A DNA stretch of 32,000 nt, from positions 150,001 to 182,000 of the forward strand of contig NZ_CP042905.2 of the NCBI RefSeq assembly GCF_008000775.2. Reading direction: 5' to 3'. Source of the DNA: Promethearchaeum syntrophicum (GTDB taxonomy: Archaea; Asgardarchaeota; Lokiarchaeia; Sigyniarchaeales; Promethearchaeaceae). Under the pieces are notes generated by a model that did no database searches, was not told where the DNA came from, and saw only the letters and a program-made list of their open reading frames with translations. This document shows positions 1,313-9,034 of the stretch, one piece after another. Each line of letters starts with the position of its first letter. The first letter of the stretch is position 1. The position numbers and the translations under genes are program-made.

Positions 1313-1434
1313 TCTAAATCAAAAATTATTTGTAATTAAAAAATATTACAAAATTATTTACATTTAATATTATATCAAAAAGAACTTAAAAAAGAAAAAG
1401 AAGATCTATGGGCAAATGCCCATAGAAATGTTGT

Positions 1435-2930
<1,496 letters not shown>

Positions 2931-3564
2931 ATTGTATCGAATCCTTCCATTATTATCCGCTCACTATAGAAAAAATTATTAGAATTGACAAGTTCATTAT
3001 ATATTTGATGAAACTTGCCCGTGTTCATAACTACTTCAGTCCTATTATACCATAGGACTTCATTTTGTTTCCCAAATCTTTGGAAAGGAGTATTTCATAT
3101 CAATGGCATTTGCCGTGATCGATACTCACGCCGTTTAAGAGATGAGTAATTTGAGTCGGTAAAGACTCAAAGTATAGAATGAAAAAGAAAATATAAACAT
3201 ATCGAAACTTAGAGTGGAAAAGTCAATGCGTTTTCTTCCTACTTAAATTTTGATATTTCAATTGAAAAGTAAATAAAATTATTGGAACACAATCTTATTT
3301 AAATTTTTAGAAATATATTAGCAAACTGAAGGAACTAGAAGCATAAAATTTATTAATGTTGAAATTTGAAATGATATATAGTTTCTTTAAACTAAATTTT
3401 AAGTCTAAATTTTTAATTTATAGTTAATAAGTATTCAAATTTTTAAATCCAGGAGTAAAATATCTGCAATTTTCAACCTAATTTAGAATTTTTGTTTTTT
3501 TTTAGGTGTTTAAATATAATTATAGAGATTTTAAACCAATTGATCGGGTAGGTGATTTATAATC

Positions 3565-4560
3565 ATGCTCCAAGATGAAATAAAGAGAAATCTTGAGAAA
3601 ATTAAAGCAACAAGAGGTGTTGAAAATGTAGTTTTAACACAAAGAGATGGAAATCCAATTCATTATACTGGAATTTGGTTTTCAAAAGAAGAGATTTTTA
3701 GCATATCTGCAGCTACTTCTGCTATTTATAATTGTGGGATTGAACTTCATAAGGATAATTTGAAATATATTTTAATTGAGGGCAATAAAGCAAAAATTTT
3801 ATTATTTCCACTTAAGAATTACGGAAGTACAACTCTAAATAAAATAATCCGAGCACAAGATTTACAAGGAAACGATAACGATTTTTTTGTTGCGATAACT
3901 GCTCAAAATATGATCAATCTAGGAGGTATATTTCTCAAAACTCGTAATAGTTTAATTGAAATCAAAAAATCTCTCATTCTTTCTGGAGAATCATTCAAAC
4001 CTCCTTTAAGACATTTTTCAAAAAAAAATATTGATGAAATTATTGGATCTTCAAATGTTAGAGATGATATAAAAATTAGTGAAAATGTGCAATTATATTC
4101 CCTAAATATCCCTGAAATGATATATAAAGAATTAGATAATATTTTACGGGATCTTGGGAATCAGACCCTTGATCTCGTAAAATCATATATTGCCATTGAA
4201 GGAGGGTTTATTGTTTCTAGTTATCCCAAATTAAAAATTGATCAACATAAATTGGATTCTGAAGCTACTATGGGATATTCGCTTTTTAAAACAGCAGATA
4301 AATGTGCGTGGTTATTAAAAAAAATGCGAGTAAACTCAATTTTATTAGAATGTGTTGATAAATTTCAATTTATTAATAAAGTAGATTCAAATATTTTTTC
4401 CATTGAAATTGGTAAAGGGAGACAGAAACTAGGATTACTTCGATTAATTATACCAAGATATTGTAAAAAAATCACATCCATATTGGAAGAAGCTCGAAAA
4501 TACGAGATAAAACCTGTAAATCTAAATTTAGAAAAAATGTTTACAGAGTTAATTTTTTAA
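3565..4560 (+). CDS. Tandem Roadblock/LC7 (MglB-like) domain protein, 331 aa
   Basis: There are two Roadblock-like modules. The N-terminal one reads LEKIKATRGVENVVLTQRDGNPIHYTG...ISAATSAIYNCG...LKYILIEGNKAKILLFPL. The C-terminal one reads DLVKSYIAIEGGFIVSSYP...EATMGYSLFKTADKCAWLLK...SILLECVDKFQFINKV. An SD-like AGGTGAT lies 10 nt upstream of the ATG. This is the first gene of an operon that ends in an MglA-type GTPase. Confidence 0.7.
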   Translation: MLQDEIKRNLEKIKATRGVENVVLTQRDGNPIHYTGIWFSKEEIFSISAATSAIYNCGIELHKDNLKYILIEGNKAKILLFPLKNYGSTTLNKIIRAQDLQGNDNDFFVAITAQNMINLGGIFLKTRNSLIEIKKSLILSGESFKPPLRHFSKKNIDEIIGSSNVRDDIKISENVQLYSLNIPEMIYKELDNILRDLGNQTLDLVKSYIAIEGGFIVSSYPKLKIDQHKLDSEATMGYSLFKTADKCAWLLKKMRVNSILLECVDKFQFINKVDSNIFSIEIGKGRQKLGLLRLIIPRYCKKITSILEEARKYEIKPVNLNLEKMFTELIF

Positions 4561-4576
4561 AAAAGGAGATAATTTT

Positions 4577-5476
4577 ATGAATCTTATTGAATTATTTACA
4601 AACTCAAAAAATGAAGACATAGCATTAATCCTACATTGTCTTTTAGATAGAATTCCAATAGTAATTATTAGTTCAAATGAAGAAGAGGTTGAAAATATGA
4701 TGAATGGATTAACTAATTTGATATCTTTTCGCAATATCATGATATTTTATACAGATTTTGTTAATCTTGATGACTATAACAATTTATTAGAATCAGAAGA
4801 ATATGACATGGAAGTTCAAAGAAATATTTTTCTCTGTTATCCATTTGCTCTTGAAAAAGCTATTGAAATTTTTGAAGTTTTTAATTTTTGGATTATTGGC
4901 TGTACAAATACTGTTGAAAACAGGCCATGCTTAAACGCATTATTCAATAGATTAACTAAAAAAAATTCTCAATTTCTTCTAATAAATATACTTGAAGATT
5001 CCTTAGAAACTAGAATTGAAGGGATTAAAGGTGATAAAATAGATATTTCATTTGAAAAATCCTTATATCAGAATGCAATTAATCACACCGAAGTTGCAAT
5101 TGAAAAAATGAAAAGAATTATCTCTAAAAGGATTAACTCAAAAAAAATTTTGATTGAGGAATATGAAAATATCATGAATTTCTATTTTGAAGAGATGGAA
5201 TTAAAGGAAAACATTATAAAGAAAGAAATTACAGATTTTTATTTAGGTTCTAAAAGAACTTTGAATATTTTAACTCGTATAAAGAATTTAGAACATTTAG
5301 GATATTCAACAAGCATTTCTAGTAAGACTTTATTTTCAACTATTGCATATAATCAATCCTCGATCGAAAGAATTCTTAATTTTATAATGCAAGAGTGGAA
5401 TATGAATTATTATGCTTTATTGAATTCAAAAAAATCATCAAATTTTACAGATACATTTGAAAGTCTATGGGGTTAA
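4577..5476 (+). CDS. Hypothetical 299-aa protein between the MglB-like and MglA-like genes; the N-terminal segment resembles a core-DENN signature (weak)
   Basis: It is a long ORF in stop-rich AT DNA. AGGAG lies 8 nt upstream of the ATG. There is a 16-nt gap to the roadblock gene, and the 3' end overlaps the GTPase ORF. LFTNSKNEDIALILHCLLDRIPIVIISS...NLDDY resembles the DENN pattern LF..LS..NIL.L..ALLLERRII..SS...LLDY. The C-terminal half looks helical or coiled. Confidence 0.6.
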   Translation: MNLIELFTNSKNEDIALILHCLLDRIPIVIISSNEEEVENMMNGLTNLISFRNIMIFYTDFVNLDDYNNLLESEEYDMEVQRNIFLCYPFALEKAIEIFEVFNFWIIGCTNTVENRPCLNALFNRLTKKNSQFLLINILEDSLETRIEGIKGDKIDISFEKSLYQNAINHTEVAIEKMKRIISKRINSKKILIEEYENIMNFYFEEMELKENIIKKEITDFYLGSKRTLNILTRIKNLEHLGYSTSISSKTLFSTIAYNQSSIERILNFIMQEWNMNYYALLNSKKSSNFTDTFESLWG

Positions 5477-5480
5477 AAAA

Positions 5481-6053
5481 ATGATTGTAAATTATAAATC
5501 AAAATTGATTCAAATTAAAATTGTATATTACGGTTGTGCATTATCAGGGAAAACAACTAGTTTAAAAAGCTTATTTAATAAATTTGGAAAAAATAGAGAA
5601 CTTACATCCATTGAAACAACAACTGGAAGAACACTATTTTTTGATTTCGGGACATTGCAGATGGTTGGTGGGGATTGGATGGTAAAAATTTTAATGTATT
5701 CTGCAACTGGGCAGGATTTTTATTCATCTACAAGACCAGCAACATTATCTGGAACTGATGGGATTGTTTTTGTTATTGATTCCCAAAGAAAATATTTTGA
5801 CGATAATTATCAATCGTGGAAAGAACTACATTATTATTTTGAAGAAAATATTTTCAAAATTCCTATTGTTTTATCTTTAAATAAACGAGATTTGCCTGAT
5901 GTTATTGAAATTGATGATGTAATAACCAAATATGAATTAAATAAATTTAAAACTACCCAGATAATAGAAACTATTGCACTTTCAGGGGAAGGTGTGACAA
6001 AAACGTTCAAAAGTATAATGTCTTTGATATTTCCTTCAATTAATATTAGGTAG
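5481..6053 (+). CDS. mglA: MglA-family small Ras-like GTPase
   Basis: MIVNYKSKLIQIKIVYYGCALSGKTTSL...TTGRTLFFDF...YSATGQDFY...TDGIVFVIDSQ...NKRDLP is near-collinear with Myxococcus MglA ([26 protein letters not shown] / DRTLFFDF / TVPGQ / NKRDLP). The ORF is open from an ATG at 5457. I prefer 5481 because it aligns with the MglA N-terminus. Confidence 0.88.
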   Translation: MIVNYKSKLIQIKIVYYGCALSGKTTSLKSLFNKFGKNRELTSIETTTGRTLFFDFGTLQMVGGDWMVKILMYSATGQDFYSSTRPATLSGTDGIVFVIDSQRKYFDDNYQSWKELHYYFEENIFKIPIVLSLNKRDLPDVIEIDDVITKYELNKFKTTQIIETIALSGEGVTKTFKSIMSLIFPSINIR

Positions 6054-6059
6054 ATTAAA

Positions 6060-6434
6060 TTGGCACAAAATATTGAATTTTTATCAATTTTTTTTTTTGA
6101 AATTGATAGAAAAGTCATTTTAATCGCATTCATTTTTCTAATTTTGATAGTTTTAAGTTTTTTTCTTCTAATACTACCTGATTTTCTGCCAAAATTGATG
6201 ATTTTAACAATAGAAATAGGATTTATTTTTATAATTTTTCAAACTAGTAAAGATGTTTCATATAGAACAAGTTTCTTTTTAGATTTAATGCAAAATCTCC
6301 AAGGAATTACTGAAATCTCTTTAGAATATCTTGATTTAATCATAAGATTCGAAATTCAAATAAAAGCATTTAAATCATTGAGTTTCATGTTATTAGCAAT
6401 AAATTTTTTTTTTACATTGTTAGAGCTATTTTAA
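6060..6434 (+). CDS. Small hydrophobic (about 3 TM) protein, hypothetical
   Basis: The TTG start lies 6 nt after the GTPase stop, on the same strand. The protein has strongly hydrophobic segments (ILIAFIFLILIVLSFFLLIL, LMILTIEIGFIFIIF, LSFMLLAINFFFTLL). No family was recognised. Confidence 0.35.
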   Translation: MAQNIEFLSIFFFEIDRKVILIAFIFLILIVLSFFLLILPDFLPKLMILTIEIGFIFIIFQTSKDVSYRTSFFLDLMQNLQGITEISLEYLDLIIRFEIQIKAFKSLSFMLLAINFFFTLLELF

Positions 6435-6443
6435 AATATATAA

Positions 6444-6926
6444 CTATAATTTAATTTTCTGTATCAGAAATTCGCAATATTGATTCTCTTTGTTATTATT
6501 AGAGCATTTGATTTCTGATATCTTTACATTCTTCATGATATATTCTCCAAAACCATTTAAAATTCCAAGAACGTAGGTACAAATAAATTTTTTCTCTCGT
6601 TTTTCAAATTTTGAAATATTATAATATAATTTAATCGATATTTCTTCATCACTAAAAATTCCTAAAGTAAATTTTCCCCAACCGGTTAAACTTGTCATTT
6701 TTAGAAAATTATTTGAAAATCTTTTTAGATCTTTAGTTTCATATTGAGAATCACATTTTTCAGCAAGAAATCTACCGAATTTCTTTCCTAAATATTGAAA
6801 AATAGATTTTGAGCCAGTATTAAAAATTGAACCAAGAGAAGAAATAATATCCACCGGAACTAGTGAAACTTTTTCCTCACAAAAGAATAAACCATCTTCT
6901 TTATTAATAAGCTCTTTCATCTTCAT
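6444..6926 (-). CDS. V4R-domain protein (COG1719-like; Bet3/TRAPP-related fold)
   Basis: The pattern GKKFGRFLAEK...TGWGKFTL...ISIKLYYN...FICTYVLGILNGFGEYIMKNVKISEIKCSNNNKENQYCEFLIQ matches the V4R layout (G-x-G core, C-x3-G-x2-G, E-x-KC, YCEF). It overlaps the upstream gene by 4 nt (ATGA). Confidence 0.7.
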   Translation of the reverse strand: MKMKELINKEDGLFFCEEKVSLVPVDIISSLGSIFNTGSKSIFQYLGKKFGRFLAEKCDSQYETKDLKRFSNNFLKMTSLTGWGKFTLGIFSDEEISIKLYYNISKFEKREKKFICTYVLGILNGFGEYIMKNVKISEIKCSNNNKENQYCEFLIQKIKL

Positions 6927-7405
6927 TCCTCGTTTAATTGAAAAATTAATTTAAGCGTTTTCTTCTCATGATTTATATTATATTCTTCCTTTCCAAATAT
7001 TCTATTTTCTTTAAAAAAACTTAGAAAAAGTCCAAAATAAAGTTCGGCTATTGATTTCAATGAAAACAATTGAGGATAATTATCCCAAATAATTGATGAA
7101 TTAATCGAAATTTTAATTAACCTTTTTTTTTTAGTATAAAGCAATTTTCCATAACCCATTTGATATAATAAATCTAAAAGATATTTCATCTGTGAATCAA
7201 TTTTCTTCTTTTTCAATTTCGGATTTAAAGAAGTCCAAAGAGAGTCTCCAATAACATTCCCAATTTTATATAGTGATTCTTCGATATTTGTTTGTAATAA
7301 CATATGGAATTCAAATAGATCAGAAGGTCGCAAAATTACCAAGGGAAGATTTGAAGTTTTTATTTTTATATGGGATTTAATTGGATCAATTTCGATATTT
7401 TTCAT
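6923..7405 (-). CDS. Divergent V4R-like protein (cysteine-less paralogue of the downstream gene)
   Basis: It has the same length (160 aa) and the same architecture pattern (LVILRPSDLFEFHMLL...LYKIGNVIGDSL...MGYGKLLY...IKISINSS...ELYFGLFLSFF...LKLIFQL), but the conserved Cys residues are replaced. It is translationally coupled to 6444..6926. Confidence 0.5.
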   Translation of the reverse strand: MKNIEIDPIKSHIKIKTSNLPLVILRPSDLFEFHMLLQTNIEESLYKIGNVIGDSLWTSLNPKLKKKKIDSQMKYLLDLLYQMGYGKLLYTKKKRLIKISINSSIIWDNYPQLFSLKSIAELYFGLFLSFFKENRIFGKEEYNINHEKKTLKLIFQLNEE

Positions 7406-7870: not shown

Positions 7871-9034
7871 TCAAAAACTAGCTAAAAGAAAATTTTTATG
7901 CTGATTTAAAAGAATTCTAAATAATTCTAGATTATCTTTAGAAAAAAGATTAATTCTTTTCAACTTCTTTATGTTAGTATAAAGCATTAAAGCTTTAAGT
8001 TCTACTTTATTCGAAAAAATTAAGATTGTTTCATATTTTAAATAGCCTTGATTTTTAAAATAATATAATAACAAATTGAAATTATTTTCTATAATTAAAA
8101 TTCTTATTTTATAAGCATTAATTAAAATATCAGATTTTGAGTTAAGTGTAAATTCAATTAACATTTCATTTAAAATCGAAGTGATTTTCTTTAAGAGAGA
8201 ATTATTCTCTTTTTCTTCTAGAAATTTAATTTTGATATCTTGGTCAATTTTCCTGTCAAGATTAAAATTTTTTATTAGATTATAAAAATCCACTTTTTCT
8301 ATTAAAACTGAGTTTGAAAGTTGTTTTTTTTTTATGAAATTAACAAAATCTATTTTGGAAATTTCTACTAATTTTAAATGGGGAATCAGTGGTAATGAAT
8401 TATTAAAATTTAGAAAATTTATTAATTTTTCATAAGATTGGGTTATTATGATGAAAGAAATTTTAAAAAAATTCTCATTTTTATGAGAAAATAAGAAATA
8501 ACCTTTAATTTTCATGGTTTGAAAAAATAATATTAATTGCTTTATTTGATTTTCTCTAAAAAAGGAATCTCCGAATTCAAATTTAAAAATATATTTTTCA
8601 TTTGCAATTTTATCGTCGATTAAAGAGATAAATTTTTCGTTTTTATTAATTGAAATATGAACATTTTTCATTTGACTAAATTCAACAAAATAAAAAAAAG
8701 AGTTTTCCAATTCTTTATTCATTTGCAATTCATAAATTATCTTTTTTTTTATAGTTGATAAACATAACAAAATGTCATTTTCAATATTGAAAATTGTTTT
8801 TAGAGATTTATTCTTGATTTTAATAAATAAAAAGGTGTTTTCTCCGCATATATCAATCACACCGAAGATTTTTTCGTTAAATAAGGCTTTTTTTAAGGTT
8901 TTAATTAATAAATCTACTATATTGGTATCATATATGCGAATAGAATAAAATCCTAAATAATACTTGGGAAACTTATAGAATAAAAGATAATTTTTAATTT
9001 GAAAATCTAATATAGATGGTCTTTTTTGAACCAT
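7871..9034 (-). CDS. Hypothetical protein, 387 aa, no recognisable domain
   Basis: A 387-codon ORF in DNA this AT-rich is very unlikely by chance, because stop codons are AT-rich. The composition is rich in K, N, I, F and L. I recognised no motifs. Confidence 0.55.
   Translation of the reverse strand: MVQKRPSILDFQIKNYLLFYKFPKYYLGFYSIRIYDTNIVDLLIKTLKKALFNEKIFGVIDICGENTFLFIKIKNKSLKTIFNIENDILLCLSTIKKKIIYELQMNKELENSFFYFVEFSQMKNVHISINKNEKFISLIDDKIANEKYIFKFEFGDSFFRENQIKQLILFFQTMKIKGYFLFSHKNENFFKISFIIITQSYEKLINFLNFNNSLPLIPHLKLVEISKIDFVNFIKKKQLSNSVLIEKVDFYNLIKNFNLDRKIDQDIKIKFLEEKENNSLLKKITSILNEMLIEFTLNSKSDILINAYKIRILIIENNFNLLLYYFKNQGYLKYETILIFSNKVELKALMLYTNIKKLKRINLFSKDNLELFRILLNQHKNFLLASF

Follow-up and report, generated by a model that had tools for sequence, protein, structure and literature searches.

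A probable roadblock–DENN-like–small-GTPase operon of Asgard archaea in Promethearchaeum syntrophicum MK-D1

The stretch of DNA analysed here, referred to as the window, comprises 32,000 nucleotides (nt) of the genome of Promethearchaeum (Prometheoarchaeum) syntrophicum MK-D1 (contig NZ_CP042905.2, positions 150,001 to 182,000 of the forward strand) and is AT-rich, with ~25% GC outside rRNA. It contains six closely spaced genes, DSAG12_00673-00678. They encode a tandem roadblock protein (RB2), a DENN-like protein of 299 amino acids (aa; U299), an MglA-family small GTPase, a small membrane protein (TM) and, on the opposite strand, a V4R-domain protein (V4Ra) and its probable paralogue (V4Rb). 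Positions 3565-6053 of the window, extended to 6434 in the MK-D1 clade, are likely to be an Asgard roadblock–DENN–small-GTPase operon that acts as a self-contained GTPase switch module, and of which the V4R pair is not a conserved component.

Gene content and layout of the locus

The features of the locus are as follows, in window coordinates:

3565-4560, plus strand: RB2, tandem roadblock/LC7 protein, 331 aa (DSAG12_00673, WP_147661791.1; exact protein match to MK-D1)
3565-3984, plus strand: N-terminal domain of RB2, residues 1-140
4114-4500, plus strand: modelled C-terminal domain of RB2, residues 184-312
4577-5476, plus strand: U299, DENN-like protein, 299 aa (DSAG12_00674, WP_147661792.1; exact protein match)
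5481-6053, plus strand: MglA-family small GTPase, 190 aa (WP_147661793.1; start as in the RefSeq protein)
6060-6434, plus strand: TM, small membrane protein, 124 aa (DSAG12_00676; TTG start after AGGTAG)
6444-6926, minus strand: V4Ra, V4R-domain protein (DSAG12_00677, WP_147661794.1; annotated as 158 aa from the ATG at 6920)
6923-7405, minus strand: V4Rb, probable V4Ra paralogue (DSAG12_00678, WP_147661795.1)

All six open reading frames (ORFs) were found at the coordinates given in a preliminary description of this DNA, as was the tight packing of the four plus-strand genes, whose gaps measure 16, 4 and 6 nt and are each accompanied by a Shine-Dalgarno-like sequence ahead of the next gene. 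RB2 and U299 are separated by the 16 nt, with GGAG ahead of U299; the ATG of the GTPase gene at 5481 lies 4 nt past the U299 stop codon, and 6 nt separate the GTPase gene from TM. A 20-nt overlap between the U299 and GTPase ORFs had also been described. It was considered here and dropped as an artefact of an upstream TTG at 5457, as both the RefSeq protein and its homologues begin at ATG 5481. The final codons of U299, TGG GGT, encode WG and double as the Shine-Dalgarno-like sequence of the GTPase gene, and the constraint on them may therefore be dual; retention of the terminal WG purely for protein function was set aside as an explanation. Nine nt (6435-6443) separate the convergent stop codons of TM and V4Ra. 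Between V4Rb and V4Ra there is a 4-nt overlap (ATGA), or a 2-nt gap if V4Ra begins at its annotated start, M3 (ATG 6920); translation of the two is coupled.

The MglA-type GTPase

The GTPase belongs to the MglA family, as had been recognised from its sequence. In a phmmer search against all PDB chains, its best matches are four MglA entries (E-values of 9e-31 to 2.5e-30), followed at a distance by Arf1 (E 2.5e-8) and Thor-Rab (E 1.4e-6). The P-loop (G18-T26) and the G4 motif (N134-K-R-D137) are present. An intrinsic arginine, R50, stands beside the G2 residue T51 (nt 5628-5633) within the sequence GRTLFFDF, which aligns with DRTLFFDF of Myxococcus xanthus. The G3 motif, S74-A-T-G-Q78 (nt 5700-5714), reads SATGQ instead of DxxGQ, such that the aspartate is absent and the glutamine is kept. 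Among 57 orthologues, Y[ST]ATGQ is found in 56 and GRTLFFDF in 51. The lack of the G3 aspartate and the intrinsic arginine beside the G2 threonine set MglA, notably group 1, apart from other Ras-superfamily GTPases (Wuichet and Søgaard-Andersen, 2014; PMC4316618). With 190 aa, the protein has a single domain and is not a Rag-type GTPase with a C-terminal roadblock domain.

The tandem roadblock protein

Residues 8-86 of RB2 match the Pfam family Robl_LC7 with 26.9 bits (cutoff 23). An AlphaFold2 (AF2) model built on 25 homologues has a predicted local distance difference test score (pLDDT) of 80 and a predicted template modelling score (pTM) of 0.76, and DSSP finds the roadblock topology αββαβββα twice in it, in residues 2-140 and 184-312. 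When the model was searched with Foldseek as a whole protein, so that matches are not assigned per domain, it returned MglB, LAMTOR2 and the crystal structures of MK-D1 (Roadblock3) and Thor roadblock proteins, with target TM-scores of 0.8-0.88. No sequence-level match to the C-terminal domain was found in Pfam or by phmmer against the PDB, where weak matches to the N-terminal domain were the only ones. The single-chain double roadblock of the preliminary description is thus supported in its first domain by Pfam and in its second by the AF2 model and Foldseek. The pTM of 0.76, reached despite a 40-residue disordered linker, suggests that the two modelled domains have a fixed arrangement. The linker, disordered according to AF2, contains an invariant SGESFKPP (residues 140-147, nt 3982-4005).

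The DENN-like protein

The second gene of the operon encodes U299, a protein family confined to Asgard archaea. It comprises 34 clusters at 90% identity and ~100 at 50% identity; the latter, Asgard-type proteins of ~300 aa, were all that a profile search of 1.84 billion representatives returned. The window protein itself has no Pfam match. Among this protein, 23 family members and 10 distant ones, none matched a Pfam DENN family even when E-values up to 10 were admitted, and a PDB profile search with the family gave no DENN chain.

The AF2 model of U299, built on 23 homologues, has a pLDDT of 88.8 and a pTM of 0.86. It consists of an α/β, DENN-like core (residues ~1-150, with β-α units at 28-149) and an all-α, d-DENN-like part (~158-274) made up of long helices at 158-186 and 203-240 and several shorter ones. 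The model begins directly with the α/β core, without an N-terminal longin (u-DENN) domain, and the roadblock domains are encoded by the preceding gene. A Walker A motif is absent from the sequence. The predicted disordered C-terminal tail is conserved (nt 5429-5473) and ends in D(T/K)(F/L)(E/V)SLWG, which in MK-D1 reads DTFESLWG.

The preliminary description had left U299 without an assignment. Its model best matches DENN modules in a Foldseek search of the PDB: the top match is DENND1B/Rab35 (3tw8; E 2.9e-3, probability 1.00, ~300 aligned columns), and further matches include DENND1A (6ekk), folliculin (3v42, 6nzd and 8dhb) and the C9orf72 complex. As defined in the literature, DENN has for its core a minimal P-loop-like α/β sandwich that lacks nucleotide-binding motifs and is joined to an all-α d-DENN domain with α-hairpins (Zhang et al., 2012; PMC3521125). 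The topology of the U299 model agrees with this definition. Based on the model, U299 is a probable member of the DENN family; it is called DENN-like here, and not proven DENN, because the TM-scores are low, no profile reaches DENN and the longin domain is absent.

The strongest alternative is that U299 is not a DENN homologue at all but a degenerate P-loop-NTPase-like protein, or an unrelated α/β and helical protein such as a GTPase adaptor or effector, in which case the operon would amount to an ordinary MglA/MglB-type pair plus an accessory gene specific to the lineage. The lack of a sequence-profile match to DENN, Foldseek E-values of ~1e-3 to 1e-1 with TM-scores below 0.4, and the many P-loop ATPases in the same list (GspE, FlaI, PilT and clamp loaders) all fit this explanation. 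However, DENND1B, DENND1A, folliculin and the C9orf72 complex recur at the top of that list although very few DENN structures exist in the PDB. The DENN alignments span ~270-300 columns and both domains, whereas those of P-loop ATPases at similar E-values cover mainly the α/β part, so that DENN modules are the sole family that matches U299 over both domains while holding the top ranks. A resemblance to P-loop ATPases is itself expected of a DENN core as defined by Zhang et al. (2012), and a DENN assignment was reached independently in the text of Liu et al. (2020; bioRxiv 10.1101/2020.10.19.343400). A non-DENN origin of U299 is therefore considered unlikely, and the DENN-like assignment is retained.

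Conservation of the operon and its prior description

Conservation was assessed in one genome per GTDB species. A U299-family profile identified 63 loci (numbered L001 onwards), with which the window proteins were then compared by tblastn. In ~57 of these 63 species-level loci, the genes for RB2, U299 and the GTPase are tightly spaced and follow the same order, and their co-occurrence spans Lokiarchaeia-level divergence. Among the more distant DENN-like members, one locus (L068) keeps the order of the trio without V4R or 16S rRNA genes, and the others vary.

The preliminary description had regarded the locus as a possibly undescribed module. The combination of roadblock, DENN and GTPase genes had, however, already been predicted: the text of Liu et al. 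[quoted passage not shown] The trio in the window is this operon, as matched to the text description rather than to Fig. 5b of that preprint, and the operon core is already known as a computational prediction. The two accounts agree on a roadblock-superfamily protein, a DENN-like protein and a non-Rag small GTPase conserved across Asgard genomes. They differ in that the window GTPase matches the MglA family at ~1e-30 and theirs is called ‘Rab-like’, a label from the preprint text that is less precise than MglA family. In MK-D1, moreover, the roadblock protein is a modelled tandem double domain, and a membrane gene is appended in the MK-D1 clade, two features in which the locus departs from the operon as described in that text. 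The GTPases, roadblock proteins and V4R/TRAPPC3 proteins of MK-D1 have also been surveyed, with a small MglA-like group noted, and the GTPase genes of this organism were stated generally not to share an operon with genes of the roadblock, longin or TRAPPC3 type (Tran et al., 2024; PMC10933270). A literature search by locus tag returned nothing beyond this survey.

Some of the loci carry questionable taxonomic labels. Two contigs filed as ‘Nanopelagicaceae bacterium’ and ‘Patescibacteria group bacterium’ (L034, DATKTW010000036.1, and L047, JANBVM010000002.1, respectively) contain the Asgard operon and are probably binning errors; L034 also has an Asgard-type 16S rRNA gene, ~85% identical to that of MK-D1. 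Several metagenome-assembled genomes (MAGs) labelled Thor-, Odin-, Hod- or Hermodarchaeota encode near-identical RB2 proteins, and these labels look unreliable. A variant copy of the operon is found at L063 and L047; it lacks a 16S rRNA gene and has an additional gene for an MglA-like GTPase upstream of RB2. The MAG YT1_007 has both the variant copy (L063) and a 16S-linked copy (L058).

The small membrane protein

Hydropathy supports the presence of a small membrane protein after the GTPase gene: TM has two to three hydrophobic stretches, which fall within residues 7-53 and 103-121. By position and hydropathy, analogues of the same size and location are found in L001, L003, L004, L005, L061 and possibly L002, and none in ~50 other loci; in Lokiarchaeum ossiferum, a shorter ORF follows the GTPase gene at this position. 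As a fourth operon gene, TM is limited to the Lokiarchaeales-like clade nearest to MK-D1. A tblastn search with TM and with U387, the product of a gene further downstream, found almost nothing beyond L001, and for TM only L001 was detectable.

Head-to-head position with the 16S rRNA gene

Upstream of the operon, the following features were identified:

1240-1312: tRNA
1434-2928, minus strand: 16S rRNA gene (Rfam)
2929-3564: intergenic region shared by the divergent 16S rRNA gene and RB2

A TATA-like sequence, TTTAAATATAA, at 3509-3519 and a Shine-Dalgarno sequence, AGGTGA, at 3550-3555 precede the ATG of RB2. In 51 of 60 loci, a divergent 16S rRNA gene has its 5′-end ~350-640 nt upstream of RB2, and most of the others begin too near to RB2 to tell. 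This head-to-head position accounts for the many metagenomic contigs that end 0.2-1.4 kb upstream of RB2. The whole block, in which an Obg-like GTPase gene, a tRNA and the 16S rRNA gene face the roadblock, DENN-like and GTPase genes, with a transcription factor B (TFB) gene further downstream, is kept down to ~85% 16S identity. The divergent arrangement of 16S rRNA gene and operon is a new pattern. Within the shared region, positions 3022-3210 are 69-76% identical in Lokiarchaeum, Harpocratesius and related loci (L002-L005, L061); the segment has no Rfam family match and is probably a 16S 5′ leader or processing stem.

A functional meaning of this arrangement is possible but unlikely. Regulation of the GTPase switch could be shared with that of ribosome synthesis and growth, or the switch could act on these processes, which would make it a prokaryotic counterpart of the folliculin/Rag signals that reach ribosome biogenesis. 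The recurrence of the divergent 16S rRNA gene in 51 of 60 loci over Lokiarchaeia-level divergence, including genomes whose full-length 16S rRNA gene is only ~85% identical to that of MK-D1, and the Obg-like GTPase and TFB genes on the flanks would be in keeping with such a role. Yet conserved synteny extends over the entire region as one long block, and history may account for the proximity. Moreover, the distant locus L068 keeps the trio without a 16S rRNA gene, as does the second copy present in one genome (L063). A functional link is improbable on this evidence.

The V4R pair

The preliminary description had counted two V4R genes, and this stands for V4Ra. V4Ra itself matches Pfam V4R weakly, with an E-value of 0.004, which is under the gathering score. 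Ten of 11 family members match the same profile (best E 1.4e-4), and V4Ra also matches the V4R-containing C-terminus of MsvR in NCBIfam (E 9e-6). Cys116, Cys141 and Cys151 are invariant. The same protein (WP_147661794.1) is the AF2 model ‘MKD1 PoxR’ of Tran et al. (2024), with a V4R/TRAPPC3-like fold, and ligand binding was considered the likely role of V4R/TRAPPC3 proteins in that study. For V4Rb, the claim finds no profile match in Pfam or the PDB, its UniRef name being ‘V4R domain protein’, and the cysteine ligands are absent. Neither family, V4Ra or V4Rb, matched a V4R or TRAPP entry in profile searches of the PDB. A profile alignment of V4Rb with the V4Ra family by hhalign is nonetheless in register (36-89 against 37-90; E 0.006, probability 6%) and scores 23.1, against 13.3±2.6 for 150 column shuffles, none of which reaches 23.1. 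Because the in-register alignment scores above all 150 shuffles, V4Rb is probably a degenerate, fast-evolving tandem duplicate of V4Ra.

Adjacency of the V4R genes to the mglA operon had been set beforehand as one test of a joint module, and the V4R genes largely fail it. Among the 54 species-level loci with at least 1.5 kb of sequence after the GTPase gene, the pair adjoins the operon, on the opposite strand, in one (L001, with proteins 84-91% identical), as well as in close metagenomic contigs. The full six-gene layout is kept in all Promethearchaeum-level relatives examined (L001, L064-L067), and homologues of V4Rb form 18 clusters in all, every one at least 67% identical. In Lokiarchaeum ossiferum, Harpocratesius and other close genera, no V4R gene was found beside the operon; in the first two, it is followed by homologues of TM or U387 and then by TFB. 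The adjacency is stable in a genus-level lineage but young, because the contigs with more divergent V4Rb homologues keep all six genes and other genera do not. As the pair lies on the opposite strand, it is not co-transcribed with the operon, and since its adjacency is limited to the closest relatives, it is probably not part of it.

In a second large clade, a single, well-conserved V4Ra-like gene is located 8.0-9.1 kb downstream of the operon, a distance that hardly varies, in 37 of 44 loci; counted within 10 kb, a V4Ra-like gene is present in 38 of 44. Between the operon and this gene lie genes for a second GTPase, TFB, a p27-type zinc-ribbon protein, a membrane protein, Orc1/Cdc6 and others. 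Because these are unrelated genes on mixed strands, the distant V4Ra-like gene reflects long-range block synteny and not an operon.

The preliminary description had gone further and proposed that all six genes encode one membrane-associated complex, in which the MglA-type GTPase would have a TRAPP/Ragulator-like exchange factor made up of a V4R (Bet3-fold) heterodimer and the roadblock protein. This is very improbable: the contiguity of the genes across the short gap between the convergent stops, the conserved layout in Promethearchaeum-level relatives, the TRAPPC3-like fold modelled for V4Ra (Tran et al., 2024) and the V4Ra-like gene within 10 kb in 38 of 44 loci are outweighed by the single adjoining locus among 54, the missing V4R genes in neighbouring genera, the block synteny, the opposite strand, the genus-restricted V4Rb without cysteine ligands, the GTPase that is not of Rag type, the absence of a longin-topology protein among the genes of the patch (Pfam, AF2 model) and the ligand-binding role favoured by Tran et al. 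(2024).

Neighbouring genes

Genomes of the large second clade encode a further small GTPase, ~217-228 aa in length, on the opposite strand ~0.5-0.8 kb after the operon (L009:3586-4272, minus strand, with an equivalent in ~45 loci), at the place where TM, the V4R pair and U387 stand in MK-D1. It is 37% identical to the operon GTPase, with GSTLYFD replacing the arginine-finger segment and YTVAGQ at G3. In the ABR01-like clade (L050:11749-13341, minus strand, and also L043 and L062), a 530-aa, coiled-coil-looking protein without a Pfam match is encoded between the operon and the second GTPase gene, and the V4Ra-like gene is on the plus strand.

In the window, the gene for U387 (DSAG12_00679; 387 aa; 7871-9034, minus strand) shares its strand with the V4R pair and lies 465 nt upstream of it. 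The protein has no family match, and weak homologues (26% identity) are encoded between the operon and TFB in L003, L004 and L061. Positions 9231-32000 of the window are occupied by ordinary housekeeping genes: TFB, a MiaB-like radical-SAM enzyme, a tRNA, a p27-type zinc ribbon, a PKD protein, Orc1/Cdc6, a prepilin peptidase, a T2SSE-type ATPase, ribosomal proteins L4 and L3, ABCE1, class-I LysRS and a 1240-aa subtilase.

Proposed mechanism and comparison with known systems

The GTPase would act as an MglA-type switch with its own catalytic arginine and glutamine. RB2 may be a single-chain pseudo-dimer equivalent to the MglB homodimer; by analogy, it would most likely bind the GTP form and serve as GTPase-activating protein (GAP) and platform, positioning the intrinsic residues of the GTPase as MglB does. 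That a roadblock protein regulates an MglA-type GTPase, as proposed in the preliminary description, appears sound on the same analogy. U299, with DENN and d-DENN parts and no longin domain, most likely completes a ‘split DENN module’ together with RB2, distributed over two genes. In this module it could be an exchange factor or a folliculin-like co-regulator of the same GTPase, in analogy to DENND1B-Rab35 and folliculin-FNIP. In Lokiarchaeales-like genomes, TM, as a small polytopic protein, may speculatively tether, anchor or receive the switch at the membrane. Equally speculatively, the SGESFKPP linker of RB2 and the ESLWG tail of U299 might be docking peptides. Gene order, protein families, modelled folds, catalytic motifs and phyletic conservation are observed; we infer the GAP and guanine-nucleotide exchange factor (GEF) roles, a physical complex and the membrane link. 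The V4R pair would be a separate transcription unit, encoding a Zn- or ligand-binding V4R protein and its degenerate paralogue, probably as a heterodimer. It would have come to lie beside the operon only in the Promethearchaeum lineage, and not as a conserved component.

Several observations weigh against this interpretation. The Foldseek similarity of U299 to DENN is marginal (E 3e-3, TM-scores of 0.33-0.40), with P-loop ATPases close behind in the ranking; no sequence profile, whether from Pfam or a PDB hidden Markov model search, ties the protein to DENN, and a longin domain, as in canonical DENN modules, is missing. Between the N- and C-terminal domains of RB2, sequence similarity is not significant (hhalign, E 0.11), and it is therefore the AF2 model from which the second domain and the pseudo-dimer are drawn. 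As 37 of 44 other loci have a V4Ra-like gene ~8 kb downstream, a loose V4R association is possible. Finally, the assignment of RomRX as a GEF in M. xanthus is now disputed (PMC13408092).

The closest bacterial counterpart is the MglA/MglB polarity switch of M. xanthus and Thermus thermophilus (3t12, 6izw). It shares with the MK-D1 locus the GTPase family, the arginine finger, the catalytic glutamine and the lack of the G3 aspartate, as well as a roadblock-fold partner encoded in the operon of the GTPase. In MK-D1, however, this partner is a single chain with two predicted roadblock domains, whereas MglB is a homodimer of ~130-160-aa subunits, and a DENN-like gene is inserted between the roadblock and GTPase genes. 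No homologues of RomR/RomX or MglC were seen in the work on the MK-D1 locus, and MK-D1 is a syntroph without motility.

Among eukaryotic systems, folliculin-FNIP is a GAP for RagC on Ragulator, and DENND1B is a GEF for Rab35. By fold, U299 comes closest to DENND1B/1A and folliculin, and the locus likewise combines a longin/roadblock-type platform, a DENN and d-DENN unit and a small GTPase. Unlike eukaryotic DENN modules, U299 does not carry a longin domain on its own chain, and similarity to them at the sequence level could not be detected; MK-D1 has one DENN-like unit rather than a DENN heterodimer, and the candidate client is MglA-type, not Rab or Rag.

The TRAPP core is a Rab1 GEF built from Bet3/TRAPPC3-fold and longin subunits. 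V4Ra resembles it, and prokaryotic V4R proteins such as PoxR, in its V4R signature, its conserved cysteines and its PoxR-like model, and the adjacent paralogues V4Ra and V4Rb could form a heterodimer like TRAPPC3/C6. In contrast to TRAPP, the MK-D1 V4R genes have no conserved genomic link to GTPase or roadblock genes and no longin subunits, V4Rb is without cysteine ligands, and small-ligand binding has been proposed for prokaryotic V4R proteins, a group that also includes the Thor-TRAPPC3 of Tran et al. (2024).

Implications

In eukaryotes, membrane traffic and nutrient signalling depend centrally on DENN, roadblock/longin and small-GTPase modules. As a speculation that we regard as improbable, the roadblock–DENN–MglA module might be wired to growth control through a bidirectional control region shared with the 16S rRNA gene, and might represent a prokaryotic forerunner of the folliculin/Rag-type connection from a longin/roadblock-DENN GTPase switch to ribosome production; in a weaker variant, a ligand-binding V4R heterodimer would have been recruited in Promethearchaeum as a sensory input. 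To the prediction of 2020, the present analysis adds an MglA-type client GTPase, a modelled tandem roadblock protein, a clade-specific membrane gene, a V4R adjacency limited to one genus and the linkage to the 16S rRNA gene. The operon is one of few places in which an Asgard GTPase is genomically paired to candidate regulators, and as its host is in culture, the putative GAP and GEF assignments are directly testable.

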